Source: a virus
DNA length: 64,000 nucleotides
Strand: one strand, 5' to 3'
IMG/VR virus record: IMGVR_UViG_3300042821_000035
Positions within the stretch are counted from its first letter, which is position 1. Every line of letters begins with the position of its first letter. This document shows positions 1-11,877 of this stretch, one piece after another. The notes below the pieces were generated by a model that saw only the letters and a program-made list of their open reading frames with translations, ran no database searches and was not told where the DNA came from. The translations under genes and the position numbers were made by a program.

Positions 1-1600
1 TTGGGGTCTCTACAACGAGAGTTATTGAACATCTGTACCAACCATTACCGACACTTTGAATAGCCGGAGATAGTGCCACTCCAGAAACCGCACCAATCAC
101 ACCGTTGGTCAGATCAAAATTTACAGTACCGAGGGGACTGCTAAGGTAAAGCTGCATCCATGTCAGCGTGCTGGCCTTAACGTAGACTGAATATGTGATT
201 TGTTTTCCGGCTATGCCCTCCCCCACAGTAATCATGTATGCGGTGTGGTTCTGGTTCGCTGCGGTATCAATAATCCTTTCCGCTGTCAGTGTACCATCCG
301 GTGCGGTGGTTGCGTCAGCCGCAATCGTTGAACCGTTCAGATTCCAACTGTTCATCGTATTTGAATAGGGTAGCCAATTGGTGCGCGTGACATTGGCACT
401 GAGCGCGGCCGTGCCAGTGTAGGCCGGTGACACCAGCGCGGACCACGCCGAGAAACCGACAGGGACAACTTGGGTGAACTCGTGAGCCTCGGTGCGAAGC
501 GTGTCAGCTGCCAGATTACCTGACAGATAGCAATACAGCGCGTAGTCGCCCGCTGCTATCGCGGCAACGTCGAAACCTCCAGCGCCCGTTGCCGGATCGT
601 GCGTCGCGTTGTTATTCCAGTTGCCAGCGTTCTGCCGAAACCAAATCTTGTTGGCGGCAGTATCCCACGCCACGCTGACAACGTCGTTTTTCAGCAAGGC
701 ACCAAGACAGGCGACGGATGTATTCGGCGGGTCGATCCAGAAGTTTCCGTTGGCGGCGATGTAGGCGGCATTGGTCCTGACATCAATAACCGAAGTCTTG
801 TTCATGATCCCGATGAAGTGACTGCTCGCCGACGGGATCACGGTGACATGGAATTCGGCGTAGAGTTTAGCGGCAGCCGATTTGTTGTAGGTCTGTGTCG
901 AGCGGATGCCACCATTGCCAGCGGCACGGGTAGCGAGCTTGTCCTTGTAGAGGGATGCTCCCAGCCCCCGGCTTCGGTCAGTTTCATTCCATCCGCTGAC
1001 GGATGGCGGCAGCATGTCATCCCAAGCAAAGAAGCGATTAGGTACCGGGTAGACGAATGGCGTGTCGCCGGTGTTGATGGTGGCTATCGGACCGGCGGCA
1101 CCGACCCACTCCGCTATGACGAAGAGTTCAATGCCTGACACGCCGCTGCCGGAATAGTTCATGCCGCCAACGATCAATGACGGATCGGCCGTACCTCCGG
1201 TATTCCATGGTCCGCCATTGACGCGGACCCATAAGGCGGTAGTCGTAAAGTCGAATGCGACGCTGATGACATCGCCGGAATTGAATACGAGATGAGGCTG
1301 TGCAGCGATGTTATTGAAGTTGTCGCGGTTCTTCACCTCGCCGTTGCGCTGAAGCCAAACCGTCTTGCCCTTGTCCTTGGTGCTGATGCCGATCCGTGGA
1401 TAGGTGTCGGCAGACGTTCCGACGAGAGCGCCAATCGTGATCTCGGCGTAGCTCCTGTCGGCATAATTGCTTTGATGCGCTACGGCGTAGGACGTGGTCG
1501 AGAACGCAAAGCCATCCCCGGCAAAAGCAACGGTCTTGTCACCGTTGCTATAGCTGAGGTTGGTGACAAAGCTGTTGTCCCACGCGGCCCTGAGCGGCAT
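1..1600 (-). CDS. Head spike/fibre-like virion protein with two SPRY/ConA-like domains (3' end runs off the window)
   Basis: Translated by hand from ATG at 1600 (absent from the ORF track, consistent with no stop inside the window). SPRY-like motifs GDVISVAFDFTTTALWVRVNG and NDVVSVAWDTAANKIWFRQN, then TRTNWLPYSN...SVGNGWYRCSIT as in phage fibre domains. Confidence 0.7.
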   Translation of the reverse strand, partial: MPLRAAWDNSFVTNLSYSNGDKTVAFAGDGFAFSTTSYAVAHQSNYADRSYAEITIGALVGTSADTYPRIGISTKDKGKTVWLQRNGEVKNRDNFNNIAAQPHLVFNSGDVISVAFDFTTTALWVRVNGGPWNTGGTADPSLIVGGMNYSGSGVSGIELFVIAEWVGAAGPIATINTGDTPFVYPVPNRFFAWDDMLPPSVSGWNETDRSRGLGASLYKDKLATRAAGNGGIRSTQTYNKSAAAKLYAEFHVTVIPSASSHFIGIMNKTSVIDVRTNAAYIAANGNFWIDPPNTSVACLGALLKNDVVSVAWDTAANKIWFRQNAGNWNNNATHDPATGAGGFDVAAIAAGDYALYCYLSGNLAADTLRTEAHEFTQVVPVGFSAWSALVSPAYTGTAALSANVTRTNWLPYSNTMNSWNLNGSTIAADATTAPDGTLTAERIIDTAANQNHTAYMITVGEGIAGKQITYSVYVKASTLTWMQLYLSSPLGTVNFDLTNGVIGAVSGVALSPAIQSVGNGWYRCSITLVVETP

Positions 1601-2270: not shown

Positions 2271-2377
2271 GTTAAGACTATTGGCAAGGCGGTGCACGGC
2301 AAGTCGCGGTCAGGCCGGTTCAGGTTTGGTGGCGCTGGTCAAGGCACGGGAAGGGGTGGACTTCGGTCTGCCCCTTC
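2271..2377 (+). ncRNA. Stand-alone GGY-NN guide-like RNA (solo VIPR-type unit) with 3' hairpin
   Basis: 20-nt leader GTTAAGACTATTGGCAAGGC identical to 31554-31573; 13 in-register pentamers 2283-2347; hairpin GAAGGGGTGGAC-TTCG-GTCTGCCCCTTC at 2350-2377. Confidence 0.75.
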
Positions 2378-3311
2378 ATTCTTCCTGCTCTTGGATAGCT
2401 GCAAAACGTCGGTCCCCCCATGGAATAAAACTGCATCTGCAGTTGGGATGAGCGGGAATCAAATCGCTTGCTTGATCAATGTCGTAAGGTCCGCCCTCGG
2501 CGATGTCTAAGCAATCATCACAAACCCGGTCGTCTCCCGCAGTCAAAACGTTGACCAGCTTGATTTTGGCTTGCTCCTCCTCGATGGCGGCGAGCAACTC
2601 GGCTACCACCTCGGCCACCACCAACGCCTTGGCGGCCTTCCTCTTGCCCCCCCTACCCTTGCGCTTGGCGTCGTGAATATGCGGTAGCCACTCAGGATCA
2701 ATGCCGACCTGCTTGATGCCCGCGTGCTTGTAGGCGTGCAGCTTGCCTGCGTTGACGGCTCGAACCACACCGGTGTTGACCAGCAAGTGCAGCCTGAGCT
2801 TGGTGATCTTCTCCAGCGTCGCGCGTATCTCGCGCATCAATTCTTCCGGGCTGCGCTTGCGCAGCACCGCGTGCGAGGTGTGCCGGATCATCCGCCGCTC
2901 GGTCTCGGACGCGATCCCGATCACCTCGGCGGTCGCCATGTAGCCATGGGTCTGGCCGAGATCAGTGGAATCCAGCTGCGCCATGTCGTGCTTCAATTCG
3001 CGCTCGGCTTGGCCGATGCCATGCTCGACTGCGTCCGCCATCACCTTCCACAGCCAGTGCGGCTCGTTGGATAGCTCACGCCCCACCACCTGCCGCATCA
3101 TCATCTCGGAGCGCGACATTTTCTGGGACTTGCTCTCGATCCACGCAATGATCTCACCCGGCAGCATCGGGCCCTCGCTGCGCAGCCCGGTCACGTCATG
3201 ATCGAGCACCGCCTGCCGCAGCAAAGTGTGGACGTTGAACACCTTGCGATTGACCAGTCCTCGCCCGCGCTGGCGCAATGCGAGGCTCTTGGTGGGGTCG
3301 CGGTGGTTCAT
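2376..3311 (-). CDS. MuF / SPP1 gp7-like head morphogenesis (minor head) protein
   Basis: C-terminal DDRVCDDC...IPAHPNCRCSF motif; position downstream of the portal. Confidence 0.85.
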   Translation of the reverse strand: MNHRDPTKSLALRQRGRGLVNRKVFNVHTLLRQAVLDHDVTGLRSEGPMLPGEIIAWIESKSQKMSRSEMMMRQVVGRELSNEPHWLWKVMADAVEHGIGQAERELKHDMAQLDSTDLGQTHGYMATAEVIGIASETERRMIRHTSHAVLRKRSPEELMREIRATLEKITKLRLHLLVNTGVVRAVNAGKLHAYKHAGIKQVGIDPEWLPHIHDAKRKGRGGKRKAAKALVVAEVVAELLAAIEEEQAKIKLVNVLTAGDDRVCDDCLDIAEGGPYDIDQASDLIPAHPNCRCSFIPWGDRRFAAIQEQEE

Positions 3312-3493
3312 TTTTTCTTCTTGCTCTGGCCCTGACGTTGCAGCGCCTTGGTGCGCGCCATCTGCTTCTTGCGGCGGTCCTCGTCGAACTGGCCCGAGTA
3401 CTTCACCTTGGGGTCAAGCCAGTGCGGCTTCTCGTTGACGATCTCATCGGCGAGAATGTCCACGTGTATCGTCGGCGGCTTCTCCTTGGCCAT
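3308..3493 (-). CDS. Small basic hypothetical protein (61 aa)
   Basis: ATG at 3493 overlaps the portal stop (ATGA coupling); its stop overlaps the MuF start. Confidence 0.6.
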   Translation of the reverse strand: MAKEKPPTIHVDILADEIVNEKPHWLDPKVKYSGQFDEDRRKKQMARTKALQRQGQSKKKK

Positions 3494-6400
3494 CACGCCA
3501 CCTTCATCTTGACGGCGCTGAGCTTCGGCGCCTTCTCGATCCACGCATCCCATGCTTTCCACGCGGTGCCCGCAACCACCACTTCCTGCTCGGATTTGAC
3601 GTTGATGCCGTAGGCCGGGATCGACAGCGCTGCAGTGCGCGGCATCAGCGCACGCAACACGATGCGAGACCCATCAGATGACCAGCCATTAGCAATGTCC
3701 GGGTTGAAGGTGGTCGAGGCGGCGCCGTTGCGCACCACATTGAGGTGCGGCACCTTTTTGTAGCCACCCTCCGCAACGCTGTAGGCCTCGGCCTCTTCAT
3801 ACTGTTCCTTCGGCAATACGATGCCGCGATAAAGCTCAAGCTCCTGCAGCCCCGCCTTGTCGAGCAGCATCTGCGTCGTCTCCCACTTGGCGCGCACATA
3901 GGCCTTGATGCCCTCATAGCCGCCGACATCGCCATAGTCCTTATCGGCCTTCTTGGCGATGACATCCTTTTCCAGCCTGATCTTGCCGTCGCGCCCGGTC
4001 ACCTCGTTGAGGCGCCCGCCCAGTTCATCGGCGGTCGCCACCTGCAACAGCTGGCCCTCTTCACTGGTCGAGGATGCTTTCCACGCCGTCCACAGCTTGG
4101 CATCCAGCCTGCGCAGGTCGATCCGCTCAATGTCGATGTCGCGATCCTTGAACACCTGCTCGGCGCGATCCAGCGACAGCTGCCGCGCGATCTTCTGCGT
4201 CTTCTTGTAATCGTCGCCCGAGGTCTCGTTGAGCGGGTCGAACTTGGCAGGCATGCCGATGGTGCCGGTGGGGGTGACGCCGGTCTGCTCGTACTCTGCC
4301 ATCGCCGTGTTGTACTCGTCCATCAGGTCGCCGATGATCGAGGTGTTGAATTTGGCCCACTTGAATTTCTCGTCGTCGTCCATGCCGGAGTAAGTCTCTT
4401 CCATGTACTCCTTGGCGCTGTCGGAGAAATCAGGCGGCTCCTCGTTGCTGGCGTTGTCCTGCGCCTTGTCGTTGAACTTCTCGACCAGCATGCCGGACAA
4501 TTCCATCCGCATTTTCTCGGTCAACAGTTTGGAGTAGTCCTGCTTCTCGATGCCCTCCATCTCGATCTGGTCCGGGTCTTCGAGGCTGTCGGCCTTCAGA
4601 CTGTGCAACAGCTTGTCGTCGTACTCGACATCGACCGAGCCGCCGCCCTCGCCATCGCTGTCATACCTGATGCGGATCGCTTGGCCCAGTTCAAGCGCGT
4701 TGAATGGAAACTCGGTATCGGTCTCGCGCAGGATGTCGCCGTCGCTGTCCTTGCTGACTTCCAGATATTCCGCGATGGCCTCGTTGATGAACAGTTCAGC
4801 ATCAGAGCCGTCGGCCAGATTGCCCTTGGCCTGATCCAGCGCGCCGCCGTTCTGCTGCCAGCTTTCGGTCTCGCTGTCGATGTAGCTGCTTAGCTCGTGA
4901 TCGTAATACGCGCTCTCGATGTCGGCCTGCGTGGACTCGCTCAGCATGTCCCAGCTTTCAGGCTCCGGCGGTCCGTCGTATTCGTTCTCCTCATCGGGCT
5001 CGGCTGAACCCTCTTCCTCGGGCTGGTCCGCGCCCGAGTACTTGTTCAACAGCGCTTCCATCGCGGGCTTGGCGCTCTGGTACTGCGTCTCCAGCCGCAC
5101 CGCGAGCGCCTTATTCCATTCGTCGCCACCAACGTCGATGGCCTTCGGCTCCAGCTTCAGTTGTGGCTCGCCAGCCTTCTTGCCGCTCAGCGCAGCAATC
5201 GCGGCGGCGTTCTGTGCCTTGCGATCCGGCGCGTTGGAGCCGAACTCACCCTCCTCATTGCGCGGATGCAATTCTTCCTTGAAGGCCCCGGCGTCCATGT
5301 AGCCGTTGACGGTGGGGCCGAACGTAATCTCAAAAGGGCCGTCACTGTCACCCAGTCCCTTGGCCTTCTCGCTGGCAGCCTTCTTGCCCTTGCCGCCGGT
5401 CCACTTCTCAGCCTCCTTGATCAGGTCAATGATGCCGATGTTGATGCGCGCCACCTTCACCTGTCGGCCGTCATTGGTGAGGTTGTTGTCGGACGCGTCA
5501 TGCGCCAGCTGCCCGGCCCATGTGTGATGACCATCGAGAATGTAGTCGTCGCGCGAGATCACGATGCGCTTGTAGAATTTGCCCTCTTCCTCGATCCGCT
5601 TCATCGAGGCGGCGACCTTCTCGCCACTTAGCTCGCTCTGCGACGCGCGCAGGTTGGCGGCCTTCTCGCGGCCCTCGTCCACCTCGTAGCCCTGCTCAAC
5701 CAGATACTTGACGAAGTCCCCGGTCTTGGAGGCGCGGATCACCGGCATCTCGACGCGCGGCACCCCGATCTGATCGGCGCAGAATAAATTGGTGCCCTTG
5801 ATGGTGACGTTGCACAGATTGAACGTCGGCGCCGATGAGCCGCCCTCTGCCATCTCCAGCGCGGTCTCGCCGAGCCGCTGGATCAGGGTCGTGACCTGCT
5901 TCGGTTGCTTGAGGTCCACCCGGCGATCTTCGAACAGCGCGCGCTGTGCATCGTAGACGTTGGAGGTGTGGATAACCCCGTTGCGGTCGATGAACGCATC
6001 CGGCGAGTAGCCCTTGCCGGGATGCTTGCCCGAGGTCTGCGTGGTGGCCTGTACTACGCCCTTGCCCTTGCGCGCGGCCACCGACTTGATGCCTGACAAC
6101 GTCTTGAGCAGCGCGCTTTCATTGGCGGCCAGCGCCTTCGCCTCACGCCGGGCCGATCCCTTCAGCGCTTTCAGTGCGGCTGCGTTCTTGGCGTTGCGGT
6201 TAGGTGCGGTCGAGCCGAACTCGCCTTCCTCGTTGCGCTTGATCAGTCGCTCATTCCAGATGCGGACATCCTCGAAGGCGGCGTCCTTCAGAGATCGCCC
6301 ACCCCGCGCGCCTGCTCCAGTGCGATATTGATCTCCTGATCGGACAGCGTCCTTCCTTCGAGACGCTCCAGCGTTTTTATCAGGCTTGCCTCCTCCGCGT

Positions 6401-8562
6401 TCAGCCGCTTCTTGATCGGCTCCTCCGCTGGCGGCGTTCGTTCTGGAGCTTTCTTTGGCGGCTTCCCAATCATCGGTGTACTCGCTGGCCTTGGTGGGTG
6501 CTTCCCAGTTGGCGCGGTTGGCCGTGTTGGCGCGCGCAATGGCGTCGGCGCCGTCCTTGCCAAGGTAACCACGCCAACTCATGAACACTATATCAGGTTG
6601 CCCCATCTTGTCGAAGTCCCAACCCTCCGGCGCAAACTCCGGGTTGAACTTCATCCGCATGTCTTCTTCAAATCCGAACTGGTGATAGAAGTGGTTGAGA
6701 TGCCCAGCGTAGCAGTCCAGTGTCCTGCCGCCGTTCTCAATCGCCTGCACCATGGCATAGGCGCCCGAACCCTTGGGCCCGCCATTGTTGAACACGTTCT
6801 GCACGTCGCCTTGCGGATCGACGCTCACCCCTGCGGTGGAATCCTTGTTCATGAACAGCTTGTGGCCAGCCAACTCCTCGGCGGGATGCGCCGAGAGGAA
6901 TTGCTGCCGGGTGGACTTGTCGCGCGCGGCCACGAATTCTTCTGGCGCTGCCTTGTGGAAGTCGCTCGGCTTCTTGTTGGCGAGCGAGCTTAGCGCCTTG
7001 CGCGATAGCTCTTCCTTGGTGGGCGCCTCACCGCCACCACCCGGACCGAATTGTCCCTTGTTCTCGGGCTTGCCGCGTGAGTGGTTGGCTTCGTTCCAGA
7101 GTGCGTCGATATGATCGGCCAGCCTGCGCAGCCTCTCACTGTCAGACGACGGTCGCGAGTTGGGCGGCGCCAACTGCTTGGGTGGTCCACCGGGAGGGCC
7201 ACCGGGAGGACCATCGTCGCCACCATCCTCATCGTCCGGAGGCTCCAGCATCGGCGGCTCCACCGGCATCTCTTGGTTCTCGATGGCCTCTTGGATCGCG
7301 GCCTCCAGCCCCGGATAGGTGCCGTCCTCGACCAGCTGGTTGCACCTGCCCTTGACCAGCGCCTCGAACGGGATCAGCCCGGTGTTGGCATCAACAGCGG
7401 CAGCATCTGCCTTGGTCTTGGCAATGGTGGCCTTCTGCGCATCGTCCATCTGCCACAGCGGATTCCACGTGTAGTGGATGTCCTTGTCGTAGCTTCCCAA
7501 CGCTGAGCGCTGCAGCGCCATGTCGAGCTTCTCTAGTGCGGGACGCAGACGCAATTCCTGATCGGAGGCAATGCGGTCGTAGTAGTTTTGCAGATCGCTG
7601 TCGCCGGTCGCGTTCAATCCTGCAGGTGACATGCCGAGGAAACGCGTCGCAGGAATATCGGCCGCACCCGCTGCGATCTGCAGATACATCTGCAGCACCT
7701 CGGGCATCCCGGTGAGGTTGACACCGATGCGCTCCCATTCCTCCTCGGCATCCATCACGATGGCATTGATGACCGACTTGGCAACGTTGGCCTCGGAGAA
7801 CCGCTTGATCAGCTTGTCGGTGCCCTTGGCGGTCGAGAATATCTCAGTCAGTCCGGGTATCTTGATCACGTCGAACTTGGCTTCGGCAATCAGTGAAGCG
7901 ACGCTGCCCATGACAGTGCCCGCACTGTTCACCGCATCGTGGATCACCTGCAGCAACGGATCGCCCCAGCCGAAATTGATCATCGGGTCCGGCGCATCGA
8001 GACCAGTGAGACGCACCATGCGCGAGGGATGTATCTTCACCTCGTTGAGCAGCTGCTTGTTGGGCGTGTTGGCGCCGCCTTCACTGCGCAGGATGTAGTG
8101 CTCGGGCTGCCCGTAGTAGGGCGATGAGATATCGCGGATCATCTCCTCGACATGCAGCTGCCACGGCGCCAGCACGTGAATGAACTTGAGCCCGTCCTTC
8201 TTGATCTTCTCGGGGTCCAACTCCTTTTCCATGTTGCCGTCAACGCCGATCAGCATGCAGGCGCCGCCATAGAGCCGAGCTTTCACCATGGCCTGCTGCA
8301 GTTTCAGCTGCAGCTGCAATCTCTTCTCGGTGGCTTCGAGCTTCTCGATCTGGTCAGCCTCGGCCTGCCACGCCCGCCACTCACGCGTTGCGTCGAACGC
8401 CGGGATCGAGATCGCCTTGCGTGCGATCCAGTCCGACTTGAACGAGGATTCCAGCTGCTCGCGCGTCCACAGCACGGTGACATATCTGGACGCAGTGAGC
8501 TTGTCGCGGCCGGGCACGCCCAAGCCACTGAGGAAATTGCTGAAGGTGTCGAACAGGTACAT
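3493..8562 (-). CDS. Portal protein (DUF1073/HI1409-like) fused to GNAT-like, ParB/Srx-like and ADP-ribosyltransferase-like modules (1689 aa)
   Basis: N-terminal ~440 aa portal-like (WIARKAISIPAFDATREW, ARLYGGA, AGAADIPATRFLG); follows terL; downstream motifs GGRTLDCY...FYHQFGF, IVISRDDYILDGHH, LYRG...ASTT...SEQEVVV. Confidence 0.85.
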   Translation of the reverse strand: MYLFDTFSNFLSGLGVPGRDKLTASRYVTVLWTREQLESSFKSDWIARKAISIPAFDATREWRAWQAEADQIEKLEATEKRLQLQLKLQQAMVKARLYGGACMLIGVDGNMEKELDPEKIKKDGLKFIHVLAPWQLHVEEMIRDISSPYYGQPEHYILRSEGGANTPNKQLLNEVKIHPSRMVRLTGLDAPDPMINFGWGDPLLQVIHDAVNSAGTVMGSVASLIAEAKFDVIKIPGLTEIFSTAKGTDKLIKRFSEANVAKSVINAIVMDAEEEWERIGVNLTGMPEVLQMYLQIAAGAADIPATRFLGMSPAGLNATGDSDLQNYYDRIASDQELRLRPALEKLDMALQRSALGSYDKDIHYTWNPLWQMDDAQKATIAKTKADAAAVDANTGLIPFEALVKGRCNQLVEDGTYPGLEAAIQEAIENQEMPVEPPMLEPPDDEDGGDDGPPGGPPGGPPKQLAPPNSRPSSDSERLRRLADHIDALWNEANHSRGKPENKGQFGPGGGGEAPTKEELSRKALSSLANKKPSDFHKAAPEEFVAARDKSTRQQFLSAHPAEELAGHKLFMNKDSTAGVSVDPQGDVQNVFNNGGPKGSGAYAMVQAIENGGRTLDCYAGHLNHFYHQFGFEEDMRMKFNPEFAPEGWDFDKMGQPDIVFMSWRGYLGKDGADAIARANTANRANWEAPTKASEYTDDWEAAKESSRTNAASGGADQEAAERGGGKPDKNAGASRRKDAVRSGDQYRTGAGARGGRSLKDAAFEDVRIWNERLIKRNEEGEFGSTAPNRNAKNAAALKALKGSARREAKALAANESALLKTLSGIKSVAARKGKGVVQATTQTSGKHPGKGYSPDAFIDRNGVIHTSNVYDAQRALFEDRRVDLKQPKQVTTLIQRLGETALEMAEGGSSAPTFNLCNVTIKGTNLFCADQIGVPRVEMPVIRASKTGDFVKYLVEQGYEVDEGREKAANLRASQSELSGEKVAASMKRIEEEGKFYKRIVISRDDYILDGHHTWAGQLAHDASDNNLTNDGRQVKVARINIGIIDLIKEAEKWTGGKGKKAASEKAKGLGDSDGPFEITFGPTVNGYMDAGAFKEELHPRNEEGEFGSNAPDRKAQNAAAIAALSGKKAGEPQLKLEPKAIDVGGDEWNKALAVRLETQYQSAKPAMEALLNKYSGADQPEEEGSAEPDEENEYDGPPEPESWDMLSESTQADIESAYYDHELSSYIDSETESWQQNGGALDQAKGNLADGSDAELFINEAIAEYLEVSKDSDGDILRETDTEFPFNALELGQAIRIRYDSDGEGGGSVDVEYDDKLLHSLKADSLEDPDQIEMEGIEKQDYSKLLTEKMRMELSGMLVEKFNDKAQDNASNEEPPDFSDSAKEYMEETYSGMDDDEKFKWAKFNTSIIGDLMDEYNTAMAEYEQTGVTPTGTIGMPAKFDPLNETSGDDYKKTQKIARQLSLDRAEQVFKDRDIDIERIDLRRLDAKLWTAWKASSTSEEGQLLQVATADELGGRLNEVTGRDGKIRLEKDVIAKKADKDYGDVGGYEGIKAYVRAKWETTQMLLDKAGLQELELYRGIVLPKEQYEEAEAYSVAEGGYKKVPHLNVVRNGAASTTFNPDIANGWSSDGSRIVLRALMPRTAALSIPAYGINVKSEQEVVVAGTAWKAWDAWIEKAPKLSAVKMKVA

Positions 8563-8564
8563 GG

Positions 8565-8753
8565 CTATCGGTTCACATGATTGACGGCGGATTGCATCTG
8601 CAGCCACAACGTTTCGCGCACATACATGCGGCGGCTATCGTTGCTCATCAGGGTGTCGTGGCGACCGAGCTTGGTCAGGATGTTGCGCGGAATATGTCGA
8701 GGGGCGAGTGAATTATCATCTGGGACTACGACCACCTCGACCTTGTCAATCAT
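8565..8753 (-). CDS. Hypothetical protein (62 aa)
   Basis: ORF coupled to its neighbours in the terL-portal interval. Confidence 0.5.
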   Translation of the reverse strand: MIDKVEVVVVPDDNSLAPRHIPRNILTKLGRHDTLMSNDSRRMYVRETLWLQMQSAVNHVNR

Positions 8754-10141: not shown

Positions 10142-10402
10142 TCTTTCCCATGTCTCTCGGTGAAGCCGTGTTCACGCTCGGCTGCCTGTCGCGCTGCAAT
10201 GGCCTCGTCTTGTGTACCGAACGTGCCCAGCCAGATTGTCTTGTTGTTAACAATCGACAACGTGCATGCTGTTGAACGCTGGCTTGCCTGCGTAGCGAGT
10301 ATTCCACCAATCAAGATCGCGCTTCTTCCAAACAAACAAACCGGTGCTCGGGTTGTAGCTCAGATGCTCGCGTGCTATCTCTTGTGTAAGTTGTGTTTTC
10401 AT
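10138..10402 (-). pseudogene. Internally deleted HNH/AP2 homing endonuclease remnant
   Basis: ATG 10402 overlaps the terL stop and reads MKTQLTQEIAREHLSYNPSTGLFVWKKR...WNTRYAGK (HNH N-terminus), then stops; another frame gives the AP2-like end KTIWLGTFGTQDEAIAARQAAE; no HNH core between. Confidence 0.7.
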
Positions 10403-11877
10403 CCAACCCAATCTAAACTTGAATCGTACTTGCGCATGCTCTCAGCGAGTTTGTTAAACGCCCCCGCCGTCGCGTCCACCTGATCTTTATACTTTCCTAA
10501 AGGGAATTGCTCGTGCTCATCGAGGAACGCCCTATTCCATTCGCCTGCTACCAGTGAGACATCGCCATTCTGCACGGCACCGGCGTACGGCTCGGCGCGC
10601 ACTTCCTTGGCGCCGGTCACCTTGTCGGCAAAGGCGCCGAACTGCTTGAACCTGCGGATCGAGGCCTCGGCACTCTCCTTGCCGCCTGAGCCCGGCTCCT
10701 GCTCGAACCAGATCGAGTATTGCCTGCAGGAGGCGTCATCGGCCTCGGCGGCCTGCATCAGGCGGCGCTCCCGCTCCAGCACCGGCCACTGCCCCCGCAG
10801 CATGTCTTCCACCACGGTGGTGCCGTCCCGCATGTCGTGCACGAGGGCGGCTGCCGTATAGGCGCCATCCTCCTCGGTCGATGCCTTGTCCACGTAGCGG
10901 ATGCTGCGGCGCACCTGAGAACGGTTGAAGCTCGTGATGATCTTGAACCGGTCCACCGGAAACATGTCACCACCGGCGGCAATCGGTGTCTGTTGATAGA
11001 CGCTCTGCCAGCCTGCCTCGGTCAGCACCTTGCGGCGTTCATTGAGGAACGACAGTGGCTTCAGCTGGGGAAACAGCGCCTCGCCCTTGTTGCGGTGCTT
11101 CTCATCGCGCTCGGCAATGGCCGGATATCGCAGCACCTTGGTGTTGGGGAAGTGCTCCAGCCACCTGCCTGCCGGATCGTCGAGGTGCCACCTCGTCATG
11201 ATCATCAGGAAGCCCGCGTTGTTGGAGAACCGGCCGAAGAAGTCGTCGGTGAACCAATTCCACGTCTTGTCGCGCACGGTCTTGGACGATGCCTCGGCGC
11301 GGCCCTTCATCGGGTCATCGACCACCCCGAGGTCGAGCCCCATGCCGTTGATCTGGCCCATCACGGTGGTGTTTCGGAAGCCGCCCTGATGGCCGACATA
11401 TTCCAGCACCGAGCTATTGCGCATCCACCGGCCCGAGCCCTCCATCGCGGTGTTGGTGTCGTTCAGCTTGGTCTTCCTGAACGCCAGCTTGTAGTTGGGG
11501 CTGTCGAAGATGCGCTGCAGCGACAGGTTCACCCGGACGCCGAGGTCTTCCGAGTAGCTGGCAAAGATGGTTTTCAGGTCCGGGTTCATCCCGGCCACCC
11601 ATGCCACGAAGTCGCTCACCTGCTCGGTCTTGCCGTGCTGCGGTGGCGCCTGCAGCACCATGGCCGGGCGCTTGCCTGCGACAAGGTCGTCCCAGAACGT
11701 CATCAGGTGCTTGGCAACATCCTCTTGCCACCACGCGTCCAGCATCTTGGGCCGGATCAGGCGCCTGAAATGCTTGAAGTGCTTGCGGGCATTGGAGCCT
11801 GCCAACTCCTCAGTCAGCGCTAACTCGGTCGAGTTGAACTCAGTCTTGACTGGAAGAAACTGGACCATTGTCTGCAT
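10399..11877 (-). CDS. terL: Terminase large subunit
   Basis: Walker A APPQHGKT, Walker B VVDDP, IMTRWH motif, nuclease-domain DKAS and C-terminal KDQVDA. Confidence 0.95.
   Translation of the reverse strand: MQTMVQFLPVKTEFNSTELALTEELAGSNARKHFKHFRRLIRPKMLDAWWQEDVAKHLMTFWDDLVAGKRPAMVLQAPPQHGKTEQVSDFVAWVAGMNPDLKTIFASYSEDLGVRVNLSLQRIFDSPNYKLAFRKTKLNDTNTAMEGSGRWMRNSSVLEYVGHQGGFRNTTVMGQINGMGLDLGVVDDPMKGRAEASSKTVRDKTWNWFTDDFFGRFSNNAGFLMIMTRWHLDDPAGRWLEHFPNTKVLRYPAIAERDEKHRNKGEALFPQLKPLSFLNERRKVLTEAGWQSVYQQTPIAAGGDMFPVDRFKIITSFNRSQVRRSIRYVDKASTEEDGAYTAAALVHDMRDGTTVVEDMLRGQWPVLERERRLMQAAEADDASCRQYSIWFEQEPGSGGKESAEASIRRFKQFGAFADKVTGAKEVRAEPYAGAVQNGDVSLVAGEWNRAFLDEHEQFPLGKYKDQVDATAGAFNKLAESMRKYDSSLDWVG

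Follow-up and report, generated by a model that had tools for sequence, protein, structure and literature searches.

Several described systems carry, or are predicted to carry, proteins for the host cell inside the phage head. Polyvalent proteins include ADP-ribosyltransferase (ART), GNAT and ParB-superfamily domains (Iyer, Burroughs, Anand, de Souza, Aravind 2017, PMC5512222). Portal proteins fused to PBECR, 2H, InPase, Nudix or ART domains have also been described, with the prediction that they travel in the head and enter the host (PMC5512222; Iyer et al. 2022, PMC9503650). About 40 copies of T4 Alt are packaged, trimmed by the prohead protease gp21 and ejected with the DNA, and C-terminal fusions to the T4 portal protein gp20 give active phage (PMC9026906). 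A recent virion proteome places a giant polyvalent protein in phi24B heads. Here we describe a portal-polyvalent fusion gene (3493..8562, minus strand, as are all features of the window given below) in a window of 64,000 nucleotides, the whole stretch analysed, from the IMG/VR virus record IMGVR_UViG_3300042821_000035. Behind the portal domain the gene encodes a GNAT-fold module, a ParB/Srx-like module and an acidic region joined to an ART domain. The protein is the phage's sole portal, and we think it probable that its C-terminal polyvalent array is cargo that is loaded in the head, freed, injected and put to early use in the host. The portal-effector layout has already been predicted by comparative genomics and the concept is published; what is particular here is the three-module array on a sole portal, the large ART and ParB-like families that lack models, and a tightly linked cassette of the ART and a small partner gene.

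The gene is a single uninterrupted open reading frame (ORF; window 3493-8607) of 1704 codons, along which residues are numbered in what follows. Its likely start is the ATG at 8562, because the 1689 amino acids read from there equal the length of an identical database record (P0004). With its stop codon the gene, as taken from the ORF list and translation, thus ends where the initial annotation had placed the end of one portal-effector gene, at 3493-8562. The window lies within a single contig of 85,350 bp from an uncultured soil phage with a G+C content of 60%. That the fusion is an artefact of misassembly or sequencing error, or a recent and functionless read-through of a portal stop codon, is scarcely credible. 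Nothing was found in favour of such an origin, and some relatives do split the array into two adjacent genes, so gene boundaries move. Against it, a 1001-base stretch over the portal/extension boundary is present, at about 100% of sampled words, in 19 public runs from about 15 studies of soil and freshwater sediment. Contigs from four runs were compared with the whole fusion gene: it is covered with 0 differences and no indels by a contig of 15 kb from run X2 and by one of 5.2 kb from X5, and a 995-nucleotide contig from X19, a run not flagged as a possible source, spans the boundary (7140-8134), again with 0 differences. At least 14 relatives from other samples, on contigs of about 85 kb, hold portal and extension in one frame with 53-61% identity over the full length, and across relatives conservation of the cargo modules roughly equals or exceeds that of the portal. 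Given identical independent contigs and a fusion conserved in relatives, the frame runs on past the portal without a stop and nothing suggests misassembly, and the stop-loss or assembly artefact that the initial annotation had wished to see checked against reads is excluded. A soil metatranscriptome library (X20) also includes contigs at window 4411-4741, 6309-6565 and 7487-8199, which match cargo as well as portal with 0-1 differences. They hint that the gene is expressed in the field but, since DNA carry-over is possible, are not counted as expression.

The N-terminal part is a portal domain of the DUF1073/Phage_portal_3 type (7243..8562; residues 16-455), which bears out the roughly 440 amino acids of portal recognized in the initial annotation. 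PF06381 aligns with residues 51-404 over profile positions 2-356 of 357 (E 6.5e-102, 341.3 bits against a cut-off of 33.8), PHROG 146 'portal protein' (phrog_146) with residues 15-463 (E 8.6e-123), and TIGR01555 scores 258 bits against a cut-off of 196 (E 1.4e-76). The solved Pam3 portal 8hds matches at E 1.2e-91 and the E217 gp19 portal at E 3e-15. The closest portals from cultured phages, those of Rhizobium, Stenotrophomonas and cyanobacterial phages, share about 40-44% identity, and none of them has the extension. When the portal part was used as a tblastn query against the 85-kb genome, it found one place, the fusion gene itself; as the sole portal-like sequence in the genome, the fused protein must act as the portal. 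A simple scan for signals that would yield a short portal on its own turned up no slippery heptamer, no homopolymer run and no internal Shine-Dalgarno-ATG, other mechanisms not being excluded. With one portal gene and no signal for a short product, each portal subunit bears the extension, which also suits a different reading: that the extension stays tethered and is never injected, its work being done in or at the capsid or, ahead of assembly, in the producing cell. The ParB-like module could then hold the DNA end, the acidic region could be a DNA-mimicking plug or spacer, and the enzymes could act late in infection as part of unassembled portal monomers. We consider this unlikely, for reasons that appear with the modules themselves.

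Mapped by BLAST against 78 long homologues, the extension resolves into three independently moving blocks, at about residues 545-780, 860-1085 and 1109/1150-1701. No piece of residues 455-1704 gave a Pfam or NCBIfam match. The module motifs fall in invariant or nearly invariant columns (29-57 homologues), and the module models reach a predicted local distance difference test score (pLDDT) of about 88-95. The first block contains a GNAT-fold acyltransferase-like module (6508..6975; residues 545-700), with a GGPKGSG loop at 6763-6783 and FYHQFGF at 6670-6690. In a model of residues 545-1095 built with 60 sequences, pLDDT exceeds 90 over the first 155 residues, and Foldseek matches the module to GCN5, PCAF, PaiA and other GNATs with probability 1.0. 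The GNAT fold is therefore a strong assignment for a predicted structure, and the fold search places at residues 545-700 the GNAT-like module that the initial annotation had seen at about 6560-6960. Residues 610-615 read G-P-K-G-S-G, which we take to be the acetyl-CoA pyrophosphate loop (Q/R-x-x-G-x-G/A, strand 4/helix 3), and Tyr641, invariant within L..FY.QFGF (sequence and alignment A2), is presumably the conserved helix-4 Tyr. Residues 455-720 have no match in Pfam or NCBIfam up to E 10, the GNAT Pfam match in relative P0021 falls in a different region, and PDB profile searches with the ART and GNAT alignments gave no meaningful match.

Several weak lines of evidence converge on a ParB/Srx fold for the second module (5338..6030; residues 860-1090; pLDDT about 90), with LRASQ at 5638-5652 and DGHHT at 5521-5535, and we give this assignment moderate confidence. 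By ESM Atlas language-model features its nearest clusters carry ParBc_2 or ParB_N (0.94 and 0.91; the 0.94 cluster is 57% ParBc_2), and its predicted structure has a template modelling (TM) score of 0.52 (186 aligned residues, root-mean-square deviation 4.1) with an ESM Atlas cluster in which ParBc_2 makes up 74%. Two members of the ParB alignment have weak ParBc_2 Pfam matches. The wider family has the consensus D.YV.DGHHRWAA, and its top PDB matches are 1vk1 and free serine kinase, which align precisely at this motif but with a non-significant E of 0.077-0.2; we take both to be ParB/Srx-fold proteins. The PDB structure lists for the model of residues 545-1095 were filled by GNAT matches, both domains having been folded in one model. 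The initial annotation had proposed a ParB/Srx-like module at about 5400-5830, and it can be kept at residues 860-1090 with that moderate support. The DGHHR-type signature with its active-site Arg is absent: DGHHT has Thr1029 in place of the canonical Arg, a position where close relatives have H, K, A or R, while Arg987 in LRASQ is invariant among 33 close relatives (alignment A3). A copy without the canonical Arg suits binding rather than catalysis, which would agree with an extension that never leaves the portal. The family is large, with at least 515 stand-alone relatives of about 280 amino acids, and none of those listed has a ParB-family Pfam domain. An hhalign comparison of alignment A3 with P1 DdrB gave a probability of 0.15%, against a single-sequence template and thus at low sensitivity. 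A bridge through cultured phages was tried and set aside: giant virion proteins of F116 and Pavtok match the ParB-like module by tblastn, but no ParB Pfam domain is found there.

The acidic region (4141..5157; residues 1151-1489) has by its composition a net charge of -53 and a pI of 4.07, the former favouring a DNA-mimicking part that remains at the capsid. In the BLAST map it always moves with the ART as one module of about 550 amino acids (query residues 1109/1150-1701). The ART domain itself (3496..4140; residues 1490-1704) is of the R-S-ExE type, with R1594, S1631, E1673 and E1675, and its motifs lie at 3823-3834 (LYRG), 3709-3726 (GAASTT) and 3580-3594 (SEQEV). In an alignment of the last 215 residues with 36 relatives, Arg1594, Ser1631 and Glu1675 are invariant and Glu1673 is present in at least 90%. 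The model (pLDDT 87.9) has the Arg on strand 100-108, the Ser on strand 141-144 and the Glu at the start of strand 186-189, and this placement on strands 1 and 2 and on the strand after the loop is the layout of R-S-E ADP-ribosyltransferases. The best match among AlphaFold DB clusters is an 'ADP ribosyltransferase domain-containing protein' (E 1.5e-9, TM 0.57), and other named ART rows there are of the exoenzyme type and DraT. We regard the ART assignment as good, with NAD+-dependent transfer as its putative activity; conserved residues and predicted fold agree with the C-terminal R-S-E ART-like domain read by the initial annotation at about 3493-3900 from LYRG, ASTT and SEQE. That the catalytic-type residues of both ART and GNAT modules are conserved argues against a purely tethered role. 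The curated families PF03496, PF18760, PF01129 and PF07357 matched none of the 37 members, save one DRAT at E 0.056, and the ART-PolyVal or ADPrib_exo_Tox Pfam domains found in relatives (ART-PolyVal in P0033 and P0042) map outside the shared ART region.

How widely is the ART distributed? A profile search of 1.84 billion representatives found the family in 842 clusters at E <=0.001 and in 293 at <=1e-30. Among 185,579 species genomes the ART module occurs in three, two of Bradyrhizobium and one metagenome-assembled genome of Xanthobacteraceae. Together with the 60% G+C and the Rhizobium-phage-like portal, these occurrences point to soil Alphaproteobacteria as hosts. In Bradyrhizobium elkanii WSM2783 (L086 3178-6627, plus strand) a 1149-amino-acid ORF, presumably of a prophage, ends in the ART module, with further occurrences in L087 and L085. 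Two other relatives deserve mention. P0008 (1793 amino acids), in other respects closely related, loses the alignment just after the ART Ser-Thr motif, in a frameshift-like manner over its C-terminal 60 residues, which could be a sequencing error or a decayed copy. P0061 (1224 amino acids, from NCBI) has Sigma70 region 1.1 (PF03979, E 1.2e-21) at residues 514-568, directly before the acidic and ART module; it is an acidic, DNA-mimic-like domain of a host sigma factor within a phage cargo protein.

Each module is preceded, within disordered linkers, by a junction motif, [FWY]-x-E-x(2)-H-P-R-x(2-8)-G-x-[FWY] followed by Gly-rich residues. A regex scan located a degenerate copy between the portal and the GNAT module (7030..7101; residues 503-526, NHSR...GQFGPGGGG) and a canonical copy (5236..5286; residues 1108-1124, AFKEELHPRNEEGEFGS); the intervening copy, also degenerate, lies in a low-pLDDT linker of the model (6211..6264; residues 782-799, ...KRNEEGEFGS). 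There are 66 strict matches in the 78 homologues: none falls within a mapped module, and 30 of 54 lie 15-44 amino acids ahead of the next module. Free-standing relatives often have the motif near the N-terminus, and in the 85-kb genome it occurs in a plausible frame only in the fusion gene. No junction motif came up when the text of the 2017 paper on polyvalent proteins (PMC5512222) was searched by term. The initial annotation mentioned neither these motifs, nor the small ORF after the ART, nor the published portal-effector fusions. A more ambitious proposal would be that the junction leader is a general signal for loading and cutting, with the portal as a 12-copy rack, a head protease that frees the cargo, and the 61-amino-acid protein as a dedicated inhibitor or chaperone of the ART. 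We put this forward only tentatively, as less likely than not; if it is true, the injected proteomes of uncultured phages could be predictable from sequence.

The small partner ORF (3308..3493, its ORF given as 3311-3493; 61 amino acids), read from the sequence, has an ATG that overlaps the stop of the fusion gene and a stop that overlaps the start of the MuF-like gene. A homologue lies within 450 nucleotides downstream of the ART ORF in 67 of 75 IMG/VR loci, one copy per locus; 26 of those loci and the window's own ORF served to build the profile, so about 40 are new finds. The next gene after the partner is MuF-like in only 5 of 32 cases, and the partner therefore goes with the ART and not with MuF. 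In its protein an IDIL..E...PHWL.P core is conserved and the tail is basic; it matches no Pfam family and, by tblastn, nothing in cultured phages. Co-folding of the ART domain with the 61-residue protein gave a median score of 0.56, compared with 0.39 for a control in which the ART was replaced, a result that counts neither for nor against binding. Could the ART and the small gene form a MuF-type toxin-immunity cassette that happens to ride on a portal, and serve competition between phages or lysogens rather than host takeover? The overlap with the ART stop, the recurrence of the pair and the way it tracks the ART agree with this, as do relatives within Bradyrhizobium genomes, presumably prophages, and MuF toxins followed by an immunity gene have been described (PMC5576092, PMC11699363). 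However, binding of the small protein to the ART is putative, a basic protein of about 60 amino acids belongs to no known immunity family, and a late head operon would make the partner together with the ART, which suits a role in chaperoning or assembly equally. We judge a cassette of this kind improbable, more so than an extension that stays on the portal.

In accord with what defines polyvalent proteins, three effector modules stand behind a portal in a head operon and their order varies in the 78 relatives: the ParB-like module precedes the GNAT module in P0018 and P0019, and the GNAT module is lost in P0010-12. Long relatives found through the extension include 14 with PF06381, three with a lambda-type portal (PF05136) and three with an HK97-type portal (PF04860), and others have Acb1 anti-CBASS, DUF7178, Nudix or capsid/protease domains. 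In one split array, the stop of a 1142-amino-acid portal gene overlaps the start of the P0033 gene, which encodes 1189 amino acids with ART-PolyVal and the ART module. The 78 IMG/VR loci with the ART module comprise 8 with a portal in the same ORF, 4 directly after a portal ORF, 18 with a portal no more than a few kb away, 11 truncated where the contig ends, and 37 in which no portal was detected with three portal types as queries, a count that is not one of absence. The varied carriers and the split array indicate that the portal is one of several interchangeable carriers and that gene boundaries move. The modules are also found as head-module genes in their own right and after portals of three unrelated families, which suits interchangeable cargo better than a structural role specific to the portal. 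Ten relatives (P0017, P0023, P0025, P0028, P0038, P0045, P0048, P0049, P0050 and P0057) pair ParB-like and/or ART modules with Acb1 anti-CBASS (PF23474), confirmed for P0017 at E 1.2e-25, a pairing that fits a counter-defence role of the arrays.

How might an array of this kind work as cargo? In solved portals the C-termini face the capsid interior, and the portal ring would accordingly set 12 copies of the array inside the head. Twelve extensions, each 136 kDa of a 186-kDa protein, would amount to about 1.6 MDa and, by our arithmetic, would take up about 1% of the space that 85 kb of DNA requires. The initial annotation had likewise thought of injection in 12 copies, an idea that needs a step of release from the portal, which it did not include. 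Cleavage in or close to the leader motifs, for which the head-maturation protease is the likeliest agent, would release the modules; these would exit with the DNA and act early in the next host, where the ART would ADP-ribosylate host proteins as T4 Alt does. The small partner could keep the ART in check within the producing cell, in the manner of the immunity proteins of MuF toxins, or could help to fold or load it.

Five points weigh against this cargo reading. The portal stays in the capsid after ejection, so tethered cargo must be cut to leave; this cleavage we infer, and to that extent a permanently attached extension gains. The ParB-like copy with Thr for the canonical Arg may, judging by its sequence, have altered or lost catalysis. 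The strict regex finds the junction motif in only 30 of 65 complete ART-module ORFs. The ART module (tblastn, residues 1151-1704) is in no cultured phage among 50,697 phage records, and the phage and its relatives are known from sequence alone. On the other side, NAD+ and acetyl-CoA are not expected within a sealed capsid, which speaks against the tethered reading. On balance we continue to think it probable that the array is cargo for injection.

The genes around the fusion form a head module on the same strand, in the order TerL, fusion gene, 61-amino-acid ORF, 311-amino-acid MuF-like gene, small virion proteins and three very large proteins (1099, 1945 and 906 amino acids), followed by a DUF2213/phrog_530 'head maturation protease', a cement protein of the E217/Pam3 type and the major head protein. 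The large terminase gene (10399..11877; PF03237 and PF17289; phrog_38 E 7e-69) is about 1.8 kb upstream of the portal gene. The MuF-like minor head protein (2376..3311) is recognized by phrog_115 and phrog_758, 'minor head / head morphogenesis' (E 5e-11), and by PF04233 at E 2.3e-5, under the cut-off; Pfam and PHROG scans show no extra domain, and the adjacent MuF without cargo of the initial annotation stands. The three very large ORFs between the MuF-like gene and the head protease (L001:15792-19091, L001:9462-15299 and L001:6732-9452, all minus strand), the first of which, of 1099 amino acids, extends into window 1-1600, have no Pfam match. The 1099-residue protein matches phrog_5939 'tail protein' and phrog_10080, and the 1945-residue protein phrog_10080; the three may be further internal or ejection proteins.

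Effectors packaged in the head let a phage act on a cell ahead of its own gene expression; apart from T4 Alt, P1 Dar and the N4 virion RNA polymerase, hardly any have been studied. A portal as carrier would fix the dose at 12 copies and put the cargo beside the exit channel, a layout so far predicted from genomes. The locus described here is a clean test case for it: its portal gene is single, its three modules are separable, its ART family of 842 clusters has no Pfam model, and its small partner gene is conserved. The Bradyrhizobium relatives could make the system tractable. If the junction motif is a signal for processing or loading, cargo could become predictable from metagenome sequence.

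Compared with published polyvalent proteins and portal-fused effectors, the fusion is alike in having several conflict-type domains in one head-gene polypeptide, in its typical ART, GNAT and ParB parts, and in the shuffling of these between relatives. Unlike them, the Pfam models made for polyvalent proteins match none of the three modules, the ParB-like module is negative by hhalign with P1 DdrB, the prototype of the polyvalent ParB family, and the protein is without a peptidase domain for self-processing. The resemblance to T4 Alt lies in an R-S-E ART that ends a unit of 550-680 amino acids encoded with head genes, although residues 1151-1704 of the fusion have no detectable sequence similarity to Alt. 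Whereas about 40 copies of Alt enter by a capsid-targeting sequence, the carrier here is the portal, which would fix the number at 12. The arrangement is also reminiscent of MuF polymorphic toxins (Jamet et al. 2017, PMC5576092; Bxa/Bsi, PMC11699363), which likewise have a head protein as carrier, a C-terminal toxin-like enzyme, ARTs included, and a small gene directly after; it differs in that the carrier is the portal while the neighbouring MuF-like protein is bare, in having three modules rather than one, and in that the immunity role of the small gene is putative. The ART itself resembles the C3/VIP2-like R-S-E enzymes Vis, VahC, C3bot, ExoS and C2-I, whose fold, including the N-terminal helices, it is predicted to share over model residues 6-205, with the Arg on the first strand, Ser-Thr on the second and Glu-x-Glu ahead of the fifth.

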